64,000 nucleotides of DNA from Candidatus Zipacnadia bacterium (GTDB lineage Bacteria; Armatimonadota; Zipacnadia; Zipacnadales; UBA5352), in assembly GCA_029821635.1 (NCBI GenBank), contig JALGSW010000003.1, positions 7,650 to 71,649 of the forward strand, in the 5' to 3' direction. Positions 8,471-42,514 of this stretch are shown piece by piece. Position 1 is the stretch's first letter. The number at the start of each line of letters is the position of its first letter. Both the position numbers and the translations under genes were made by a program. The notes below the pieces were generated by a model, which had not been told where the DNA came from, did not search any database, and was given only the letters and a program-made list of their open reading frames with translations.

Positions 8471-9847
8471 CTACCTGATCTTCTCGATCTGATACCCCAG
8501 CCCGGTCCCCTGCAGTGACGACGTATCCGCCTCGCCGTTCTGGAGCCGGAAGATCCCCTCGTGGACGCTCTTCTCCGCCTCTGAGGTCGAGCCGGGGAAG
8601 AATTGCCGTGAGTTCGCCTCCACACCCATGATCGTGTTGAGCCGCGCGCCGAGGCCCACCGAGTGGATCAGCGCCAGCGACGGGTTCGTGAGGTCCTGCA
8701 CTGCGTAGGGAATTCCGAGCCTCGTCGCCTTCGCCACGAAGAGCATGCCCGAGGACTGGCCCTTGCAGGTTTTCAGGGCGATGCCCGACCAGCCGAGCTG
8801 CATCGCGCGGTCGAAGCTCTCGATGGTGGTGAGGCTCTCGTCCACGATGACCGGCTTGAGCGCCGCAATCGCGCTCATGTCATGCGCGTCCTCGTCGAGG
8901 TCCCGGCCGGTTGGCTGCTCGATGTAAAGCGTGCGCTCGAAGGTGTCCGGCGACTGCTCGCGGATGCGCTGGAGCATCTCCACGATGTAGTCCGGGCTCT
9001 CGCACATCTCGTTGGTGTCGGCGGTGAGGTGCATCGGCTCGATGCCGAGCGCGTCCAGTTCCGCGCGCCCAATGTCATTGACCGCGATCATGCGCTCGAC
9101 GTCCCAGTCGAGGTCATTGCCACGCAGCTTGACCTTCAGGCAGTACATGCCCTCATACGCGATCCAGTCTGCGAGGCAGTTGGGCAGGCCGTCGTCGGGG
9201 TCGGTGTCGTCGAGTTCGTCGCGTGTAAGCTTGTCGAGGCCGCCGACGAGGTGGAAGATCGGGACCTTCGGCTTGTACTCGCTGCGGACGAAGTCCTCGA
9301 CGTAGAGCCCGACGAAGTCCGGGCCGAGCCAGCGGCTCAGGTCGTCCATCCACGCCGGCCCGTAGCCCTTGTAGGTGTCGATCCCGTTCACGTTGCCGAA
9401 CGCGTCGTGGAGGGCGGCGTCCACCGCGGAGACGCAGACCAGGGCGCTGAGGAACGGCTGCTCGACCGCGACGCCCTCCTCCGCGCAGACCCGCTTGTTG
9501 ATGCGCGCGAGGTCGTCCTCAAGCTCCATGAACAGACCGATCGGGTGGAACATCCCCGCGTGTGTGGTCACGAGGTGGACGTATTCGTCGAGGACACGCT
9601 GCATCACGCGCTGCTTGGCCTCACGCGGGACCTCGGGCGTCGGCCAGCCCCACTGGTCCATCAGGAAGATCCCGCCCCAGCCCTCGGCGACGTCGTGGCA
9701 GCCGTTCTCGACCTCGACGTGGATCGTGCAGAATGGGACCTTCTCGACGACCTCCCCGCCGAACTTCAGCGGAGTGCGGGCCTCTGTCTGATCGATCAGA
9801 ATCTCCAGCCCTTCGACGGCTATGTCAGACTTGCGTATGGACGCCAT
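8471..9847 (-). CDS. Enolase superfamily (mandelate racemase/muconate lactonizing-like) enzyme
   Basis: KVKLRG (KxK), metal-ligand motifs DTNE, EQP and DES, GIALKTCKG. Confidence 0.82.
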   Translation of the reverse strand: MASIRKSDIAVEGLEILIDQTEARTPLKFGGEVVEKVPFCTIHVEVENGCHDVAEGWGGIFLMDQWGWPTPEVPREAKQRVMQRVLDEYVHLVTTHAGMFHPIGLFMELEDDLARINKRVCAEEGVAVEQPFLSALVCVSAVDAALHDAFGNVNGIDTYKGYGPAWMDDLSRWLGPDFVGLYVEDFVRSEYKPKVPIFHLVGGLDKLTRDELDDTDPDDGLPNCLADWIAYEGMYCLKVKLRGNDLDWDVERMIAVNDIGRAELDALGIEPMHLTADTNEMCESPDYIVEMLQRIREQSPDTFERTLYIEQPTGRDLDEDAHDMSAIAALKPVIVDESLTTIESFDRAMQLGWSGIALKTCKGQSSGMLFVAKATRLGIPYAVQDLTNPSLALIHSVGLGARLNTIMGVEANSRQFFPGSTSEAEKSVHEGIFRLQNGEADTSSLQGTGLGYQIEKIR

Positions 9848-9928
9848 GGGCGTGCGGCCTCCCCGGTGGGTGTCGGTAGCGCGCGTGTGCGTAATGCTTC
9901 ACCGCCGGACGCTCGAATCCTGCGCCGC

Positions 9929-12136
9929 TCACTCCGGCCCGAGCAGCAGTAGCCGGTAGTTCTGCGGCGGGACGCTCACCGACCAGCCGCTCGCGGCGTC
10001 GCCCGCGACCGGCTCCCCTGTGATCGCATCGACCGCCACTGGGCCGTCGGCGATTGCGGAGCTGGCCTCGCGCAGCGCCGCTACGTCCGGCCGCAGCGTC
10101 TCGGTGAGCGGCCCATCAGTGAGGTTCGCGACCGCGAGCAGGACGCTCTCGCCGCCGGGCCGCAGGTGCAACGCGATGCTCAGCGCGTGCTCCGCCTCGC
10201 CGAGGAGCGGCGCCGACTCCCACGGCCCGACGAAGCGCGTGCCCTCCAGCCACCCAAAGCGCTCGTAGCCGCGCTGAATATCGTCGAAGAGCTTCATGTC
10301 GAAGGCGCTCGGGTAAACCGGGATGCCGTAGGCGACCACGCGCGCCAGGAGCGTGCGGGTGTAGTACGCCAGGCGCTCGGGGTCATCGCGCATGACCGTG
10401 CGGTTCCACTTGATGACCTCAGGCAGCAGCTCGTTGATCACGCCGGTGCGCTGGGAGTAGGCGACCTCGTAGAGCACGTCGGGCAGGTGGCTGTAGTCCG
10501 GGACGTACATGCTCGGATCGCTGTCTGACTCGCTCATCACGAAGTTGTCCGAGCGGAAGAACATGTTCAGCGCCTCACCCGAGAGCACCATATCCGCGAA
10601 GCCCGCCGCGGTGATCGGCGTCTTCGCGTGGTGGATGGAGATGAGGTGGTCGGGGTTCTTCTGCTTACAGGCGATCCACAGGCGCTTCATTATCTCGCGC
10701 TGCCACCACAGAGGGTAGTACTGGACGCCGTCGACGGACGCCGGGTGGTCGTGCGCGGGGTTCATGCACAGCGTGTTGGGCGCGGCGAGGTCGAAGTAGA
10801 GCCCGCCCACGCCGTAGTCCTCGATCGCCTGTACGTTGTACCAGACGATGAAGTCGCGAACGCTCTTTGGGGACAGACAGATGTAGTACGCCGATGGCTG
10901 GCGAGGAGGGATGCCCTGCAGCAGCGCCCAGTTCGGGACGATCATCGAGCCCTGGGGGCGGCCGATCCTCCAGGCGTCGGCGTAGTGGTCCCATTCACCG
11001 CGCGGGAGCGTCGCGGCGAGCACGTAGAGCGCCCCGTAGGGAACATACTCCGCCCCGAACTCCCGCACGCGCGCCAGACCCTCCGCAAGCAGCTCCGCGG
11101 GTTCGCGGCCGCGCGTGCTCATCTCGCGAGCCGACGGCGCCGTCGCCGGCTCCAGGACAGGCATCCCTGGACAGGCCAGCGGGAACCAGTTGTGCCAGCC
11201 GATCCCGTAGACGTCGTGGTTCTGGGCGTTCATGACCGAGCCGGTCACCCAGGAGTTCGTAAGCACGATCCGCCGCCAGTCGTCGGGCAAAGGCTTCACC
11301 GGCGTGGGGTAGAGCGCGAAGCTCCAGGTGGTCGGCGCGGTCAACGTCACCGGCTCCGCGACGAACTCGAAGACCGCGCGCACCGAATCCGCCGAGGGCT
11401 CGATTCGCAGCGAGCGGTCGCTCTCCATCGGAGCCCACGTCGCGTTGGTCTCGCAGGACCACTCCAGCCCGACGTCGTGGTTGCCCAGCCACAGAGTCGG
11501 GTACCACTTCGTGCTGAGGCCCTCGGAGCAGTGGCCGAAGCTACGGGCGAAGTCGCCGCGATCGAGGCGCTGGACGTTGAAGTCGTAGTCGATGTAGCGG
11601 CTGAACATCTCCGCCACGCCGGGCGCGAAGGGGAGCGTGAGGCGCAGCCCATCGACGGTCGCGGCCCCGCCCGGCGTCACCGTCACGTCCACGCGCACGA
11701 AGCCGTCGAACTCGAGCGAGGTCTCCGCGAGCACTCGGCAGCCCGCCACCTCGCCCGTCGAACCCCACTCGGCGCGCACATCGGTGGCCGTGGCGGGGCC
11801 GCCGGTCCACGCGACGGCCGCGCCATCGACGGTCAGGGCGAGCGTCGGCGGTTCGACGAAGAGTTCGGTGCCCTGGGAGGTGATCTGCGCGGGGAGCGGG
11901 CCGTTGGCGAGCGCGAACTCCCGCCCCCACACCTGCGCGCGGTCGCCATCGAGCACGACCGGCGTCCACGGTTCGGGGACGATCGGCTCCAGCCCGAGGT
12001 TGTTGTTCTCCCACGGGTAGCCCTGCGCGGGGTACTCGCCCTCGGGGACCGCGAGCGGATCGATCTGCTGCGCTGCGACAGGCACGAAACTCCCTACGAT
12101 AAGCGCCAGCGCGCCTGCCACGATCCGGGAACGCAT
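9929..12136 (-). CDS. Secreted glycoside hydrolase-like protein (DUF6067-type)
   Basis: Signal peptide. WGREFAL, EFDGFVRVD, PTPVKPLP and YGVGGLYFD motifs are shared with the paralogue at 49841-53056. GGAGG RBS. Confidence 0.7.
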   Translation of the reverse strand: MRSRIVAGALALIVGSFVPVAAQQIDPLAVPEGEYPAQGYPWENNNLGLEPIVPEPWTPVVLDGDRAQVWGREFALANGPLPAQITSQGTELFVEPPTLALTVDGAAVAWTGGPATATDVRAEWGSTGEVAGCRVLAETSLEFDGFVRVDVTVTPGGAATVDGLRLTLPFAPGVAEMFSRYIDYDFNVQRLDRGDFARSFGHCSEGLSTKWYPTLWLGNHDVGLEWSCETNATWAPMESDRSLRIEPSADSVRAVFEFVAEPVTLTAPTTWSFALYPTPVKPLPDDWRRIVLTNSWVTGSVMNAQNHDVYGIGWHNWFPLACPGMPVLEPATAPSAREMSTRGREPAELLAEGLARVREFGAEYVPYGALYVLAATLPRGEWDHYADAWRIGRPQGSMIVPNWALLQGIPPRQPSAYYICLSPKSVRDFIVWYNVQAIEDYGVGGLYFDLAAPNTLCMNPAHDHPASVDGVQYYPLWWQREIMKRLWIACKQKNPDHLISIHHAKTPITAAGFADMVLSGEALNMFFRSDNFVMSESDSDPSMYVPDYSHLPDVLYEVAYSQRTGVINELLPEVIKWNRTVMRDDPERLAYYTRTLLARVVAYGIPVYPSAFDMKLFDDIQRGYERFGWLEGTRFVGPWESAPLLGEAEHALSIALHLRPGGESVLLAVANLTDGPLTETLRPDVAALREASSAIADGPVAVDAITGEPVAGDAASGWSVSVPPQNYRLLLLGPE

Positions 12137-35241: not shown

Positions 35242-36423
35242 TTGCCCCCCGGAGTTCTGACACGATTTGCCGCGCCCATTCTCCTCGCGCTCGCCGTCCT
35301 CTCCGGCGGCTGCGCGTGGCTCAACGGCTCGACCTCGGAGGCCACCGCCGCGGGCACCGTCACAGGCGCCGATGGTCTCGTGGAGGCCCCGGCGCCCGAG
35401 CCCGAGCCGCGCAGCTTCACGATGGTTGCTGTCGGTGATGTCATGCTCGACCGCGGCGTCTGGCGCAGTATCCAGTCCGGCGGGTACCAGCGAATCCTGG
35501 AGAAGGTCCGCGACGACCTTCGCTCCGCCGACATCACCTTCGCGAACCTCGAGTGCCCGCTGGCCACCTCCGGCGCGCACGCGCCGACGGACTGCATCTT
35601 CCGCGCGGACCCGCGGGCCGTCGATGTGCTGCTCGACGGTGGCATCGACGTCGTTACCATCGCGAACAACCACACGCTCGATGCGGGCACCTCCGGTCTG
35701 ATGGAGACGCTCGACAACCTCGACCGCGCCGGCGTCGCCTACTGCGGCGCCGCCCGCGAGCGGGAGGACGCGTGGCAGCCCTGCCGCTTCGAGGTGCGCG
35801 GCGTCATGCTCGGCTTCATCGGATGCACCGACCTGAGCTTCCAGCACGGGAGCTGGTGCAAGGTCGATTCCGAGCTGACGGAGTTCGCGCAGCACGTGCG
35901 GGACGCGAAGGAGCAGTGCGACCTGCTCATCGTCACCGTGCACTGGGGGAACGAGTACCAGAAGCAGCCGACGCAGCGCCAGCGGGACGTCGCGGGAGCC
36001 GCGATCGAGGCCGGAGCCGACCTCGTGATCGGCCACCATCCGCACACGCTTCAGGGCGTGGGGGAGCACCTCGGCGCGCCGATCCTCTACAGCGCCGGGA
36101 ACTTCGTCTTCGACCAGCGCGAAGGCGAGCGCATGGAGAGCGCGATCTTCCACCTCACCTGGGTCGAGGACGAGGGTTGGACGATCAGGATGGTCCCGGT
36201 CTGGATTCCGCGCTCACGCTGCGGGCCGATCTATCCAGAGCCGAGCCGGGCGGCGAAGATCATCGAGCGCCTCGCGACGCTTTCGGCGAACCTTGGCGTG
36301 CCGGTGACTGTCAGAGACAACGAGGGAGAGGCGTTCATCCCCGCGGCGAGTCCGACCGAAGCCGCGGGAGAAGTCGCGCCCGCTTCCGAACATCCGTCGG
36401 CCGCTGCGGCGGTCGACGGCTGA
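35242..36423 (+). CDS. CapA family (poly-gamma-glutamate synthesis/metallophosphatase-like) protein, probable lipoprotein
   Basis: VGDVML, FANLE, TIANNHTLD, VHWGNEY, IGHHPH, YSAGNFVF. Hydrophobic leader ending GGC. TTG start uncertain. Confidence 0.88.
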   Translation: MPPGVLTRFAAPILLALAVLSGGCAWLNGSTSEATAAGTVTGADGLVEAPAPEPEPRSFTMVAVGDVMLDRGVWRSIQSGGYQRILEKVRDDLRSADITFANLECPLATSGAHAPTDCIFRADPRAVDVLLDGGIDVVTIANNHTLDAGTSGLMETLDNLDRAGVAYCGAAREREDAWQPCRFEVRGVMLGFIGCTDLSFQHGSWCKVDSELTEFAQHVRDAKEQCDLLIVTVHWGNEYQKQPTQRQRDVAGAAIEAGADLVIGHHPHTLQGVGEHLGAPILYSAGNFVFDQREGERMESAIFHLTWVEDEGWTIRMVPVWIPRSRCGPIYPEPSRAAKIIERLATLSANLGVPVTVRDNEGEAFIPAASPTEAAGEVAPASEHPSAAAAVDG

Positions 36424-37386: not shown

Positions 37387-37866
37387 GTGACTCGAACGAT
37401 GCGCGCCGCGACACTCGATGACATGCCTCGCCTGCAGCAGATCGTCCGGGAGGTCTGGGCGATCGGCTCAGACTTCACGCTCGAGGAGAAGTACGGCAGC
37501 GTGGGGGACGAGCGCTGGGACCGATGGCTGCTGCCGAAGGTCATGTCGCGCCTCTGGGATGAGATCGGCAACATCATCGTCACGGAGATCGATGGGGAGA
37601 TCGCGGGCTTCGTCAGCTACGCGATCGACCGGGAGCGCGAGGTCGGCGCGATCCACTACAACGCGGTGGCCACCGGCTTCCAGGGCCACGGCATCGGCAC
37701 CGCCCAGGTCGAGCGCGTGCTGGAGATCTTCCGCGACGCGGGGATGAAGATCGCCTGCGTGGGAACCGGCCTCAACGAAGGCCACGCCCCCGCCCGCCGC
37801 ATGTACGAGAAGGCGGGCTTCGAGCCGGTCATCGAGTACCGCATGTACTCCCGCCCGCTGGACTGA
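37387..37866 (+). CDS. GNAT family N-acetyltransferase
   Basis: AVATGFQGHGIGT acetyl-CoA motif and ARRMYEKAGF. Confidence 0.9.
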   Translation: MTRTMRAATLDDMPRLQQIVREVWAIGSDFTLEEKYGSVGDERWDRWLLPKVMSRLWDEIGNIIVTEIDGEIAGFVSYAIDREREVGAIHYNAVATGFQGHGIGTAQVERVLEIFRDAGMKIACVGTGLNEGHAPARRMYEKAGFEPVIEYRMYSRPLD

Positions 37867-37875
37867 GCCCGGCTG

Positions 37876-39228
37876 TTACTCGATCAGCCGGGCGGCGTTC
37901 GCGTATCGCTCACGCACCACGGTCAGCGTCTGCTCGGCATGCCGCCTGAGCATCGCCACCACGGCGCCGACGTCGAGCCCCGCCGCATGCAGCGACAGCA
38001 GGCCCGGCTGCGACACCAGCACCTCCGCGTCGGTCTGCCGCGATATCTGCTCCGCCTGGCGCAGGATGTCCACAAGGTTCCCGTAGGCGTCGGTACCCAC
38101 GTAGTCCCCGGGCCGCGCGAGCACATCCACCATGTGCGCCTCCTCCGGCAGCTCCGCCCAGGCCATGCCGATCTGCCGTAGCAGGCACGGGACGCACCCC
38201 CCGCACTGGCGATTCGCCCGCCCAACGGCCCAGCACGAGGCCGTGCGCTGAATCTCCTGCGCGGACAGGTTCGGCGCGAGGACGTCCCGAATCAGCTCGG
38301 CCTTCGTCTGGTAGACGAACGGGTTAAGCAGGCGCGCCCTCATGCCCGCGGCTTCGGCGACGCGGTTCATCAGGGCAAGGGCCAGAGGGTGCGTGGAATG
38401 GGTTGACATGCTCCCGGCTCGCGCCGCCGAGAACGGCAAGCCCGCCGTGAGCACGCCGTTCTCACACATGTACGCCTCATCAACCCCCGCCGCCTCGGCT
38501 GTGGTCAGCGCCAGTGCCATGAACAGCAGCGACCGGCAGCGCCGCGATGGCTCGCGGTCCTCCGGCGCCGGGAAGGGCAGCGCTCCCTCGCCACGCGGGT
38601 CGGTCTCCACGTCGCAGGGCCGCGCGGTCCACGCTCCCGGCCAATGCGCCTCGATCGCCGCCAGCGTCGATTGCTGCGCGGTTCGGACGGCCGGGTTGCC
38701 CGAGCGGTGCAGGCTGTAGATCGGCCGCCGACCCGTCTGCTGGAGCATCACCGCCCCAGCCAGTGAGTCGAGGCCGCCCGACAGCATGCTGACGCAGTCG
38801 GGATGCAGACCGGATGGCACCGCTTCGGCCGCCGGGCCCGCTGTAGCAGGCGCATCGTCCGCGTAGAAGCTCAGTCGGACGGTGTCTCGTGTGAGCTCGT
38901 AGAGGAGCCGATGCAGATCGACCGTCAGCCCGCTCCACAGCTCTACATCGCGCACGGGGATCGCCAGCTCGAAGGTCCTCGGCCACTGCTCCCGCTCCCC
39001 GCGCTTGACCGCGATGTCCGCGGCGTAGAGTGCGGTCGTGATGTCCAGCAGGTCCTGCGCTGCCGAGGGGAGTTCAGGCTCTCCCGGGGCACGCACCGCG
39101 CCGAGCTCCGCCGAAACGTTGGCGCGGTCGCCGTGCCAGGCAATCAGCAGGTCGGCGGGAGCCCCCGTCCGGCTCCGCTGGGCAACTCCGTCCGGGGAGC
39201 CATGGATGACCACGATTCGGGAGGGCAT
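37876..39228 (-). CDS. QueC-like (7-cyano-7-deazaguanine synthase superfamily) protein, QatC-like
   Basis: N-terminal extension DLLDITTALYAADIAVKRG...WPRTFELAIPV. LSGGLDS PP-loop, RCRSLLF, ENG...STHSTHP, TKAE, and Zn site SCW-x7-CGGCVPCLLR. Confidence 0.85.
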   Translation of the reverse strand: MPSRIVVIHGSPDGVAQRSRTGAPADLLIAWHGDRANVSAELGAVRAPGEPELPSAAQDLLDITTALYAADIAVKRGEREQWPRTFELAIPVRDVELWSGLTVDLHRLLYELTRDTVRLSFYADDAPATAGPAAEAVPSGLHPDCVSMLSGGLDSLAGAVMLQQTGRRPIYSLHRSGNPAVRTAQQSTLAAIEAHWPGAWTARPCDVETDPRGEGALPFPAPEDREPSRRCRSLLFMALALTTAEAAGVDEAYMCENGVLTAGLPFSAARAGSMSTHSTHPLALALMNRVAEAAGMRARLLNPFVYQTKAELIRDVLAPNLSAQEIQRTASCWAVGRANRQCGGCVPCLLRQIGMAWAELPEEAHMVDVLARPGDYVGTDAYGNLVDILRQAEQISRQTDAEVLVSQPGLLSLHAAGLDVGAVVAMLRRHAEQTLTVVRERYANAARLIE

Positions 39229-39230
39229 TC

Positions 39231-40007
39231 TCAGAGTCCCCCCGCCCCGAGCCGATCAAGGCCCCGCCCGACGCCCGCCGCCATGATCGGCGACAGTGTC
39301 TCGACCCGGCCGCGCGGCGACAGCTCGACCACCGCACCGAGGTCATCCTCGAACGCGTCGAGTGCGAGCCGCTCCCAGGCTTGCCGGCAGTGCGCCGCGA
39401 CAGCGTCTTCGAGTCGGTTCGCGTGGCTCACCGACGGGATGCCCTCGCCACCGATGAAGTCGCCGACATCGCGCGCCACGAAGTAGCGGAAAGTCCTGTC
39501 GAGGTCGTGGCCCACGAAGAGCGCCGCCGCCTCGTGCAACCGCCGTTCGCGGCCGAAGCGGGCGAAGTTCTCCTCCGCTACTGACAGCGGCAGCTCCATG
39601 ATGCCTGCGCCAGAGGTGGAGAGCGTCGCGATGGCCAGCGCCGCTGTGCCGACGGCCTCCAGGGCGAGGTCGCCGAAGCGAGATGCGAAGCCCTCGGCGG
39701 CGATCACCTCCTCGGCGCGTCCGCGCAGCCCGGCGGCCATCTGCACCGCCGCGGGCGCGAGGCCGACTCCGAGGCCCTGCAACGTGGCGCCCATCCCCAC
39801 CTTCTGCACACGCTGCACGCCCGCGATCACGGTGCCAAGGCACGTGGCTGCGGCCGAATCGCCCATGCCTGCGCGCGTCTCGGGCTCAAGCGCCGCGACG
39901 ATGCGTGCGACCACCTCACGTGGCGAGGGGTCGGGCTGCGCGTACAGCTCGCGCACCCGCTTCCAGGCCTCCGTCTCAGGCGATCTGTGCCACGTCGATG
40001 TTCCCAT
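39231..40007 (-). CDS. QatB-like partner protein with MGTS N-terminus
   Basis: Begins MGTSTWHRSP and is predicted all-helical. Its stop is 2 nt before the QueC-like start. Confidence 0.65.
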   Translation of the reverse strand: MGTSTWHRSPETEAWKRVRELYAQPDPSPREVVARIVAALEPETRAGMGDSAAATCLGTVIAGVQRVQKVGMGATLQGLGVGLAPAAVQMAAGLRGRAEEVIAAEGFASRFGDLALEAVGTAALAIATLSTSGAGIMELPLSVAEENFARFGRERRLHEAAALFVGHDLDRTFRYFVARDVGDFIGGEGIPSVSHANRLEDAVAAHCRQAWERLALDAFEDDLGAVVELSPRGRVETLSPIMAAGVGRGLDRLGAGGL

Positions 40008-40173
40008 GGTCTCGCATCCGCCCGGTGTGAGCCGCGGTCATCTCCGCCGCCGGCGCGGCCCCATCAGGACCTCCCCCGCGTCAACCTTCGTCCGGCCCGA
40101 TGGGTGCTGCACGACACGTCGTTCGCCGCGCCTGGGCGGTCCACCTCCGACCTTCGCCCGATGCCCCTCGACG

Positions 40174-40239
40174 TTGACAGCGGGCGCATGGCGATGGTAT
40201 CATGCCCCGGTCGAGGGGGTGAGTAGTCAACAACTCACC
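40174..40239 (+). promoter_or_regulatory. sigma70-type promoter and downstream palindrome upstream of wzc
   Basis: TTGACA (40174)-18 bp-TATCAT (40198) with an extended TG. Palindrome GGTGAGT-N8-ACTCACC at 40218-40239. Confidence 0.65.
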
Positions 40240-40261
40240 TACAACGCATCAGGACTCGCGG

Positions 40262-42514
40262 GTGGCACGCGTGGCGGCTGAAGAGATCAAGCCTCGACAC
40301 TTGGGCCTTCCGGATTACATCCGGATCCTGTCCAAGCGCAAGTGGTTCATCCTCGTCGTCACCGCGGTGGCGACACTCGTGGGAGGGCTCTACGCCCTCT
40401 CAAGCGAGCGCGTGTACGAGGCAACTGCGCTCGTGATGATCAAGCAGCGCCCGCAGGGCTTCTTCTGGGTCACCGGCGCGGAAGCCAACATGGCGCCCAA
40501 CGTCGCCATGCAGACCTACGCTCGCATCGTCCGCAGCAGTGCCGTCACCGACCTCGCCGTCGATCACCTCCAGAACCTTCCCAGCGAGGCACGCATCATC
40601 GCCACCTCCGGCGAGATAAAGAGCACGCTCAGCGTTGGCGTCATCGAGCCCGACCTGCTGCGCATCGACGCCACCTCCCCCGACGAGCGCAAGGCGCGCT
40701 ACTTCGCCAACTACGCCGCCATGGCGTTCGTCGACGTCAACACCGAGGACCGCCAGGCCGAGAGCACGACCGCTCGCGAGTTCCTCGAGACGCAGGTTGC
40801 CGCGTACGAGGACGATCTCGAACAGATCATCCAACAGATGACGACGCTCGCGCGCCAGTCGGGCTTTGTGGACATCGACTCCGAGATCACTCAGGCTGTC
40901 AACAGCCTCGCCTCCTACCAGGACCAGCAACGCTTGGCGCAGCGGGACTTGCTTGCCGCCGAGGCCCGCCTGCAGGAACTGGAGGCCGTGCGGGCAGACC
41001 AGGGCGACGTGCTGGTCGGTGAAGCCGTCGTGCCCAACCCGGAGTGGCAGGCCCTGCAGAACACGCTCATCTCCACCCGCCTCGAGCTTCAGAGGCTGCA
41101 ATCGCAGTACACCGACGGTCACCCGCTCGTGCTTGACCAGCGCGCGCTGGCCAGTGATCTCGAGCAGCGCATGGCGAACACGCCGCAACTGATCGACGCC
41201 GAATCGGCCAGGGCGAATCCGGCCACCGCGGGTATCGAGAACGAGATCAAGTCCGCTCGCCTCGCGATCGAGGAAGCACAGGCGCGTATCGGCGCCGCGG
41301 GAGGCGTGCTGGGTACCATCCGCGATCAGATCCGCGACCTCCCCGAAGCGCGACAGCAGTGGCAGTCACTCACCGACCGCCTCAATGCCGCGCGCGACGC
41401 CTATCTGAGCCTGCAGCGCGAACTGCGCCAGGCCCGCCTCGCCGAGGCCATCTCAGCCAAGCAGGGCAACGCGCAGGTCGTCGATCGGGCCGAAGATGCC
41501 AGAGAGATCCAGGCCTCGCTGAGCCGCTCGCTCGTCTTCGCAGGCGCCCTGGGGTTGTTCGTCGGCCTCTCGCTGGCGGTCCTCCTCGAGGCCCTCGACG
41601 ACACCATCTACTCCGTCGAGGACCTCCAGCGCGTCACCGACCTCTACCTGCTCGGGATCATTCCGCTGCGCTCCGACGAGGCCGGGCCGCTCGTCACCAT
41701 CGATGCGCCCAAGAGCCCGCCGGCTGAAGCTTACAGGACTCTGCGTAGCAACATACGGTTCTCGCTCTTCGACCGGCCCGCCACAACCTTCCTCGTCACC
41801 AGCGCGGGCTCCGGTGAGGGTAAGTCCGTCACCGCCGCCAACCTCGCGGTCGCCCATGCGCAGAGCGGTGTCTCCGTCATCCTCGTTGACACCGACCTGC
41901 GGCGGCCGGTCATGCACAGGCTCTTCGAAGTCGATACCGAGGTCGGCGTGACCAACGTCGTCGTCGGCGATCTGGACGTCGCCGGCGCGCTTTCAGACAC
42001 CGAGGTCCCGGGCCTCAGGCTGCTCACCAGCGGCCCGCTGCCCCCGAACCCCGCGGAGTTGCTGGAATCCGAACAGATGTCGCGGATGATCGAGCAACTG
42101 ACCGAACTGGCCGATCTCGTCATCTTCGACTCTCCGCCCGCCGTCATGCTGACCGATGCGACCATCCTCGCGTCGAAGCTCGACCGCACCATCGTCGTGG
42201 CCGAGTCGGGGCAGATTACCGAACGCGCCCTATCGGACGTAGAACGCCTCTTCCGCCACGCGCGTGCCGACATCCTCGGCATCGTGCTCAACAAGCTGCG
42301 CGTGACGGGCGGCGACTATTACTACTATTACTACTATTACTACTACGACTACGCGGCCAAGCCCAACGGTAACGACAATGGGGACACTGTACCCGCCGAC
42401 AGCGCGGACCTGACCGTCATGCCTCGCACCGGGCGCGAGGCCGACCAGCACGCGCAGGACCTCACCGACCTGAACGCCCCCACCGACCGGCCACCTGACG
42501 ACTCAGACTTCTGA
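40262..42514 (+). CDS. wzc: Polysaccharide co-polymerase / BY-kinase (Wzc-like tyrosine autokinase)
   Basis: Two TM helices flanking a coiled coil, AEAYRTLRSN, Walker A SAGSGEGKS, A' LVDTDLRRP, B IFDSPP, C-terminal Tyr cluster. Confidence 0.92.
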   Translation: MARVAAEEIKPRHLGLPDYIRILSKRKWFILVVTAVATLVGGLYALSSERVYEATALVMIKQRPQGFFWVTGAEANMAPNVAMQTYARIVRSSAVTDLAVDHLQNLPSEARIIATSGEIKSTLSVGVIEPDLLRIDATSPDERKARYFANYAAMAFVDVNTEDRQAESTTAREFLETQVAAYEDDLEQIIQQMTTLARQSGFVDIDSEITQAVNSLASYQDQQRLAQRDLLAAEARLQELEAVRADQGDVLVGEAVVPNPEWQALQNTLISTRLELQRLQSQYTDGHPLVLDQRALASDLEQRMANTPQLIDAESARANPATAGIENEIKSARLAIEEAQARIGAAGGVLGTIRDQIRDLPEARQQWQSLTDRLNAARDAYLSLQRELRQARLAEAISAKQGNAQVVDRAEDAREIQASLSRSLVFAGALGLFVGLSLAVLLEALDDTIYSVEDLQRVTDLYLLGIIPLRSDEAGPLVTIDAPKSPPAEAYRTLRSNIRFSLFDRPATTFLVTSAGSGEGKSVTAANLAVAHAQSGVSVILVDTDLRRPVMHRLFEVDTEVGVTNVVVGDLDVAGALSDTEVPGLRLLTSGPLPPNPAELLESEQMSRMIEQLTELADLVIFDSPPAVMLTDATILASKLDRTIVVAESGQITERALSDVERLFRHARADILGIVLNKLRVTGGDYYYYYYYYYYDYAAKPNGNDNGDTVPADSADLTVMPRTGREADQHAQDLTDLNAPTDRPPDDSDF
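42317..42352 (+). repeat. TAY codon run encoding Y10-D-Y
   Basis: tat tac tac tat tac tac tat tac tac tac gac tac. Confidence 0.95.

Follow-up and report, generated by a model that had tools for sequence, protein, structure and literature searches.

What a QatB-type and a QatC-type gene do when they stand alone, with neither QatA nor QatD beside them, is the question raised by a locus of Candidatus Zipacnadia bacterium (GTDB lineage Bacteria; Armatimonadota; Zipacnadia; Zipacnadales; UBA5352; GenBank assembly GCA_029821635.1, contig JALGSW010000003.1, positions 7,650 to 71,649). This 64,000-nucleotide stretch, referred to here as the window, carries on its minus strand a gene for a 258-aa QatB-like partner protein, the presumed substrate (39231..40007), followed by a gene for a 450-aa QatC-like pyrophosphate-loop (PP-loop) enzyme in which extensions of the QatC type flank a QueC core at both the N- and the C-terminus (37876..39228). 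Both open reading frames lie 2 nt apart on the minus strand, exactly where an earlier note, made from the letters of this DNA, had placed them. The two genes fairly probably form a natural QatB-QatC-type module, in which the enzyme, by analogy with characterized systems, would write a modification onto its partner.

The enzyme is a diverged QatC that carries every QatC signature residue. It is matched by the PADLOC QatC model (1.4e-50), and a phmmer search against the PDB retrieves solved QatC chains, 9zee_B (2.4e-28) and 9vlk_A. The model of a close relative (locus L013, genome G292) matches QatC over the whole chain (9y01_B/9y02_B, template-modelling (TM) score 0.73-0.75, E 3e-13) and fits Cap9 and QueC less well, over the core only (Cap9 E 1e-2). 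Residues D59, D71, R76, R84, D115, SGGxDS, R230, R232, N257, T276, P281 and K309, together with the four cysteines of the zinc site, are invariant in 40/40 order-level sequences and are common to seven canonical QatC proteins. As assigned by alignment, the SGGLDS pyrophosphate-binding loop (S150-S155; 38764..38781, minus strand) is invariant in all 40 order-level sequences and in 7/7 canonical QatC, and the STHSTHP loop (S275-P281; 38386..38406, minus strand) aligns without gaps with S277-T278-R-T280-T-H-P of Pseudomonas aeruginosa QatC. Both motifs had been read in the 450-aa protein by the earlier note and are indeed there. Its zinc site, C332-x9-C342-G-x-C345-x2-C348 (plus R351; 38185..38235, minus strand, by alignment), needs one small correction: all four cysteines are present, and the first spacer counts nine residues rather than eight. 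The zinc loop of canonical QatC is longer, with a first spacer of C-x19-C (PMC13329287). In a maximum-likelihood tree, canonical QatC is the sister group of the clade to which the enzymes of the order belong (97% support). The profile, structural and signature-residue evidence agrees with the proposal that the protein is QatC-type rather than a housekeeping QueC.

The partner is an all-alpha protein of 12 helices whose sequence begins MGTSTWHRSPETEAWKRVRELY. Its AlphaFold2 model is confident (predicted local distance difference test (pLDDT) 92.3, predicted TM score (pTM) 0.90) and helical throughout, with the first helix starting at residue 13. Conservation peaks in the N-terminal tail, codons 1-22 (39942..40007, minus strand): among 41 order-level sequences, mean conservation is 0.81 in residues 1-22 vs 0.47-0.64 elsewhere, and 25 positions of the protein reach >=95% conservation, 12 of them within the tail (M1, G2, T3, S4, R8, S9, P10, T12, W15, V18, L21 and Y22). 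G2, T3, S4, S9, P10 and W15 are invariant in the family alignment. The MGTS start noted earlier begins at the first start codon of the open frame and is invariant in 44/44 relatives, which rejects a chance occurrence. Canonical QatB opens with the same motif and has a conserved Pro16 and Trp18 (PMC13279940); in an alignment of canonical QatBs, M1, G2, T3 and S4 are common, P10 is found in 4/5 sequences and W18 is invariant. A G2D mutant of QatB abolishes defence, and the MGTS motif is essential (PMC13279940). Edman sequencing identified glycine as the mature N-terminus of QatB, whose tail sits in the QatC active site (PMC13376578), and liquid chromatography-tandem mass spectrometry revealed the QatB peptide GTSKAY in NDG-modified form (PMC13639016). 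The earlier note's statement that defence-associated QueC homologues engage or modify the N-terminal glycine of a partner agrees with these three reports.

The kinship of the partner with QatB is remote, and it is backed by two independent methods. A Foldseek search of the PDB with the partner model returned QatB (9y01_A) as the top match, with a probability of 0.99 and TM scores of 0.45/0.52; QatB is the single outlier, all other matches having TM <=0.28 and probability <=0.18. In profile-profile comparison, a diverse alignment of the partner superfamily (MGTS and MGH types) aligned with 14 canonical QatBs, used with corrected MGTS starts, at an hhalign probability of 91%; the match spans 165 co-linear columns in the helical body, and controls with reversed (1.6%), column-shuffled (0.1%) and block-shuffled (<=4.3%) templates stayed low. 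The signal comes mainly from the MGH-type sister branch (89%), which HMMER links to the Armatimonadota family at 1e-5 to 1e-18. Thus, the partner is supported as a remote QatB relative whose homology is transitive.

Several results pull the other way. The narrow family profile reaches only 0.6% by hhalign against five canonical QatBs and an MGTS-only profile 7.4%; it is because the family's own profiles are negative or weak that the homology is transitive only. Pfam, PADLOC and NCBIfam scans of the partner gave zero matches, likewise for distant members, and neither QatB model (NF041924, PADLOC QatB) matched any of 40 superfamily members, so that in the PADLOC check proposed earlier the QatC half was recovered and the QatB half was not. 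PF28083, carried by canonical QatB, is missing from the precomputed Pfam annotation of all 74 family clusters, which is empty. Searches of PDB sequences with the family profile and with a distant member returned zero QatB chains. Canonical QatB also has a disordered linker of 30-90 aa after the tail (PMC13279940), whereas the Armatimonadota partner has none. Despite these points, the earlier description of the partner as QatB-like with an MGTS start is upheld by the invariant motif, the fold match, the controlled hhalign link and the constant place of its gene just before a QatC-like gene in all 46 genomes examined. The family comprises 74 clusters at 90% identity, and each source name given is an Armatimonadota metagenome-assembled genome; the superfamily comprises 208 representative clusters at 50% identity.

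In the window the pair is hemmed in by wzc (40262-42514, plus strand; TIGR01007, 190 bits), which is divergent from it, and by a GNAT gene (37387-37866, plus strand), which is convergent with the enzyme gene and leaves 9 nt between the stop codons. There is no space for further genes, confirming the bounded arrangement that the earlier note had described as leaving no room for QatA or QatD. In 46/46 genomes whose locus was examined, the partner gene immediately precedes the QatC-like gene, and none of these 46 loci has QatA or QatD next to the pair. Clustering of open reading frames over 21 loci leaves partner and enzyme as the sole genes common to all; the one other recurrent neighbour is the GNAT gene, at 4 loci in 3 families. 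A search of the own genome for QatA (NF041923) gave zero matches and one for QatD a sole weak TatD match (65.8 bits, cut-off 230) on another contig, C158, so the proposed absence of both genes extends genome-wide save for that weak match. KAP NTPases (PF07693) occur in 10/46 genomes of the order, always on other contigs, and are absent from this genome.

The distribution of the pair, judged from a partner profile run against 401 genomes of the phylum, is that of an inherited trait of one lineage. The partner is single-copy in 7/7 genomes of the genus and in 12/13 of the family, and it is present in one copy each in 42/45 genomes of the order, spanning 7 families and about 22 genera; it is only weakly matched in 4/8 other genomes of the class, and of the roughly 348 genomes from the rest of the phylum 2 have it. 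The carriers are uncultured and known as metagenome-assembled genomes. In the tree of QatC-like proteins every family is monophyletic, and the count of label changes, 11, is the lowest attainable, a value reached in 0/200 shuffles. Within one Armatimonadota order, the pair is therefore a near-universal single-copy trait passed on by vertical descent. In the window's family the block of wzc, the pair and GNAT-PpiC-CapA-like genes is syntenic, and the two genes are 78% and 70% identical, as compared with 67-87% for six flanking genes. Between families the pair is 33-50% identical and the adjacent GNAT gene 68-70%. The pair has been lost from one 96%-complete genome whose genus otherwise carries both genes, with the homology breakpoint 14 nt upstream of a flanking SDR gene; because of this loss, it is not strictly essential. 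No relatives were found in phage records or IMG/VR viral contigs, nor any plasmid-like context around the pair, whose neighbours are housekeeping genes. The same query also retrieved canonical QatABCD loci; these are plasmid-borne and have restriction enzymes, HEPN proteins, OLD-type nucleases and transposases around them. A patchy, mobile, defence-island distribution of this sort was not found for the Armatimonadota pair.

How the two proteins would work together can be sketched by analogy with the solved QatBC and Cap9-CdnD complexes. In this model, methionine aminopeptidase would take Met1 off the 258-aa partner and bare Gly2. The 450-aa QatC-like PP-loop enzyme would bind the partner and adenylate a carboxylate with ATP, most likely that of 7-carboxy-7-deazaguanine (CDG) from the genome's predicted queD/queE pathway. 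Transfer of the activated group to the alpha-amine of Gly2 would then yield an N-terminal amide adduct. The output would be the tagged partner or the complex itself, with no ATPase, nuclease or other effector as part of the unit. CDG is the most likely donor because an NDG-modified QatB peptide is known (PMC13639016) and because queC and queD are present. A genuine queC adjoins queD on contig C93 (G000:C93:25885-26838), its product (G000:C93:25885-26460) scoring 164.5 bits against TIGR00364, and across the order canonical QueC exceeds the cut-off in 41/46 genomes and QueD is found in 42/46. Given this separate queC and queD, the QatC-like gene is an additional paralogue beside canonical queC, and this genome probably possesses the CDG precursor pathway. 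The two genes, queC and queD, are adjacent in most genomes of the order.

Some observations fit this scheme less readily. The enzyme scores 193.5 bits with the NCBIfam QatC model, under the equivalog cut-off of 280. Position 278 is serine in 39/40 order sequences and threonine in out-of-order relatives and in 6/7 canonical QatC, making Ser278 the single clade-specific change at the second 'invariant' threonine of canonical QatC. QueC and Cap9 recognize CDG by a Tyr/Asp pair, which a threonine pocket replaces in QatC, and the Thr/Ser pocket predicted here would likewise differ from the CDG pocket of QueC and Cap9; the Thr/Thr pocket of canonical QatC made its authors suspect a substrate other than CDG (PMC13279940). 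Natural in-frame read-through fusions, with the close relative L013 as the first sequence and the stop read as glycine, were also folded together; the halves were placed confidently (pTM 0.81), and in this read-through fusion residues 1-6 fell below pLDDT 50 and the tail remained undocked, a disordered state that speaks neither for nor against docking of Gly2.

Among known systems, the QatBC part of QatABCD (P. aeruginosa and Escherichia coli; PDB 9y01/9y02, 9zee and 9vlk) is the closest counterpart. It has the same order, B then C, and the same tight coupling; QatC shares with the enzyme its N- and C-terminal extensions, SGGxDS, the T-x-(T/S)-T-H-P loop, the zinc site and the cluster-specific motifs, and QatB shares with the partner a helical body, the MGTS start, Pro10 with a nearby Trp, and the best fold match. 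In contrast to QatABCD, the Armatimonadota pair has no QatA or QatD, either adjacent or as a consistent partner in trans, its partner is unrecognized by QatB hidden Markov models, and its enzyme falls short of the equivalog cut-off and has Thr replaced by Ser in the pocket. QatABCD is patchy, plasmid-borne and found in defence islands, whereas the pair is chromosomal, single-copy, vertical and near-universal in its order. Truncated QatBC alone protects against lambda-vir, QatA and QatD only broadening the range of phages covered (PMC13279940), and qatA or qatD are neighbours of only about 34% of QatC-cluster genes (PMC13329287). The searchable literature describes QatBC sufficiency for truncated operons only and is silent on Armatimonadota and on lineages in which the pair naturally stands alone. 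The pair bears on how QatBC stops phages and on what QatC attaches to QatB.

The type IV CBASS pair Cap9-CD-NTase (PDB 9nto; bioRxiv 10.1101/2025.04.06.647259) offers a second comparison, since its QueC-family enzyme ligates a 7-deazaguanine carboxylate to Gly2 of the partner and its substrate begins with the motif M-G-x-S, as does the MGTS partner. Cap9 is minimal, about 185 aa, and keeps the QueC Tyr/Asp pocket, unlike the 450-aa enzyme with its QatC-type pocket. Type IV CBASS also comprises a CD-NTase substrate, Cap10 and a signalling effector; none of these is found at the Armatimonadota locus, where the neighbours are wzc and the GNAT gene, and the enzyme is not a minimal Cap9. Canonical QueC shares the PP-loop Rossmann core, the zinc site and ATP-dependent activation of a carboxylate. 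It differs in its size of about 220 aa, its YxQxHxxE/VPxRN/YPDC motifs and its use of ammonia as the nucleophile.

Distant members of the partner superfamily (retaining M1, G2, P10 and W15) also lie directly upstream of QatC-like enzymes, and their accessory genes vary. At locus L064 (6001-8660) an MGH-type partner of 261 aa precedes a QueC-like enzyme of 625 aa that also contains a DpnII/MboI-type nuclease domain as a fusion (27.5 bits, at the Pfam cut-off), beside a gene for an 814-aa SIR2-TPR protein; the locus may represent a self-contained, QatBC-related defence module. L069 (717-4932) is a string of a FokI-like gene (domain match below threshold), B, C and genes for 199-aa and 127-aa proteins. 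L067 (5904-9606) is an operon of a 365-aa protein gene, B, C and a 209-aa protein gene next to rpmF/yceD/fabH. The accessory proteins of these last two loci match zero Pfam families, and L071 is a bare B-C pair. Nuclease-linked relatives such as L064 and L069 share the partner superfamily and the placement of the partner directly upstream of a QatC-like enzyme, and they differ in carrying nuclease modules or extra genes, whereas the Armatimonadota pair has no effector. Because distant members keep B-C with varied accessories, B and C would appear to be an invariant core to which interchangeable effectors are added, an arrangement consistent with the finding that QatA and QatD merely widen the phage range (PMC13279940). 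The superfamily is missed by current QatB models and defence-finder tools. Two further loci also show variant layouts. L021 (7799-9321; G174, in another family of the phylum) has a 195-aa MGTS partner upstream of a QatC-like gene, with a 311-aa open reading frame of no family match overlapping the partner start, and may be a three-gene variant. At L023 (G167; ~8626-11388) the partner open reading frame extends to 428 aa through a C-terminal extension and is separated from the enzyme gene by 135 nt, a layout that differs from all other order-level loci.

A two-gene module acting on its own partner has to be set against other accounts of the same pair. Were the enzyme a paralogous QueC making free preQ0, the weak Pfam QueC match in its C-terminal part (33 bits) would be accounted for, yet TIGR00364 gives it 19.7 bits with a cut-off of 150.3, its motifs are those of QatC and not of QueC, the QatC of E. 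coli fails to rescue a queC deletion strain (PMC13329287 for both), and the canonical queC-queD pair resides elsewhere in the genome. A second preQ0 synthase is contradicted by these results and has next to no likelihood. Scarcely more credible is the view that the pair is what decay left of a four-gene QatABCD operon after the loss of qatA and qatD. Although enzyme and partner both score below curated Qat thresholds, the two genes are intact in at least 40 genomes with invariant catalytic residues, and the two-gene state is at least as old as the ancestor of the order. The earlier note had named routine adjacency of qatA/qatD in close relatives as the sign of decay; since they are adjacent in none of the 46 relatives, the pair is not a decayed Qat locus. 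An improbable but more serious alternative casts the helical protein as a scaffold or specificity subunit, with the enzyme making a small-molecule amide or modifying a third, unlinked target. The undocked tail of the co-fold and the lack of a long flexible linker speak for it, as does published work in which QatC catalysis was not reconstituted in vitro and the first substrate went unnamed (PMC13279940, PMC13376578). It leaves unexplained why Gly2 is invariant and why conservation peaks in the first 22 residues, and it sits poorly with crystal structures that put QatB Gly2 in the QatC pocket (PMC13376578), with the NDG-modified QatB peptide (PMC13639016) and with the pair being the only conserved unit across loci.

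The remaining alternative keeps the writer-and-substrate chemistry and changes its purpose, the pair serving as a housekeeping or regulatory system that tags the N-terminus of a helical protein with a cellular function. The earlier note had left the choice between a minimal defence and a domesticated modification system open, and both branches are carried forward: a lineage-fixed anti-phage or infection-response module is a strong possibility that stops short of being probable, domesticated non-immune modification is a credible one, and other roles take the remainder. The domesticated branch gains weight because the core is order-wide and vertically inherited. It is favoured by the 93% prevalence of a single-copy pair with a tree congruent with taxonomy over 7 families, by synteny kept among envelope and sugar-metabolism genes, by divergence within the family that follows that of the neighbours (78%/70% vs 67-87%), and by the absence of an effector, of defence-island genes and of plasmid and viral relatives, in contrast to plasmid-borne QatABCD and to the patchy KAP NTPases. 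However, all characterized relatives act against phages, some of which QatBC can stop by itself (PMC13279940); nucleases and a SIR2-TPR gene are linked with distant superfamily branches; from one family to another the pair changes much more rapidly (33-50% identity) than the GNAT gene does (68-70%); and loss of the pair from at least one 96%-complete genome means that it is not essential. Only tentatively, then, might this be the first N-terminal protein deazaguanylation, or related QatC-type tag, recruited to a non-immune housekeeping function, and it is equally speculative that a defence core of ancient origin became fixed in the ancestor of this Armatimonadota order and has been kept vertically as a regulatory modification. 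A near-universal, single-copy and vertical distribution over seven families is nonetheless unusual for a defence-derived system, and it suggests a testable idea, namely that cells may tag proteins with nucleobases for purposes other than immunity. With no long disordered linker and a high-confidence fold, the compact partner may also prove an easier substrate for biochemical and structural work.

The junction between the two genes (39229..39243, minus strand) contains a G-rich Shine-Dalgarno-like run at 39243-39237, within the last partner codons, followed by the partner stop TGA (39233-39231), a 2-nt spacer and the enzyme ATG at 39228. Because of this run inside the last codons and the short spacer, translational coupling of the two genes is likely. 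The gap between them ranges from -37 to +21 nt in nearly all relatives, with two exceptions. The divergent intergenic region between the pair and wzc (40008..40261, 254 nt, no strand assigned) carries a strong sigma-70-like site for wzc at 40174-40203 on the plus strand, and no consensus promoter for the pair was detected in it. An Rfam scan of the whole window found zero elements, preQ1 riboswitch included, and GC content is even throughout (0.65-0.72).

The neighbouring genes have features of their own. The promoter-like site of wzc is a near-consensus TTGACA-18-TATCAT with a TG extension, and the Wzc-type tyrosine autokinase (40262-42514, plus strand) ends in a run of 11 consecutive tyrosines (YYYYYYYYYYYDY). 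The GNAT protein is weakly RimI-like (29 bits, below the cut-off), RimI being an N-alpha-acetyltransferase family. It lies beside the pair in families f1, f2 (G167) and f6 (G382) at 68-70% identity, an adjacency that is probably ancestral synteny; an enzyme of a type that acetylates N-termini, adjoining a system dependent on a free Gly2 amine, may be of interest. A CapA/PGA_cap-family protein (35242-36423, plus strand), part of the conserved GNAT-PpiC-CapA-like block, weakly matches the lasso-peptide Trp epimerase MslH (98 bits, cut-off 700). At the locus that has lost the pair (L075, G067:C27, 8637-11126), a TPR gene lies past the SDR region, and after it, at the contig end, is a tandem array of 27-nt repeats that translates as GMFWGCP[A/T]H repeats.

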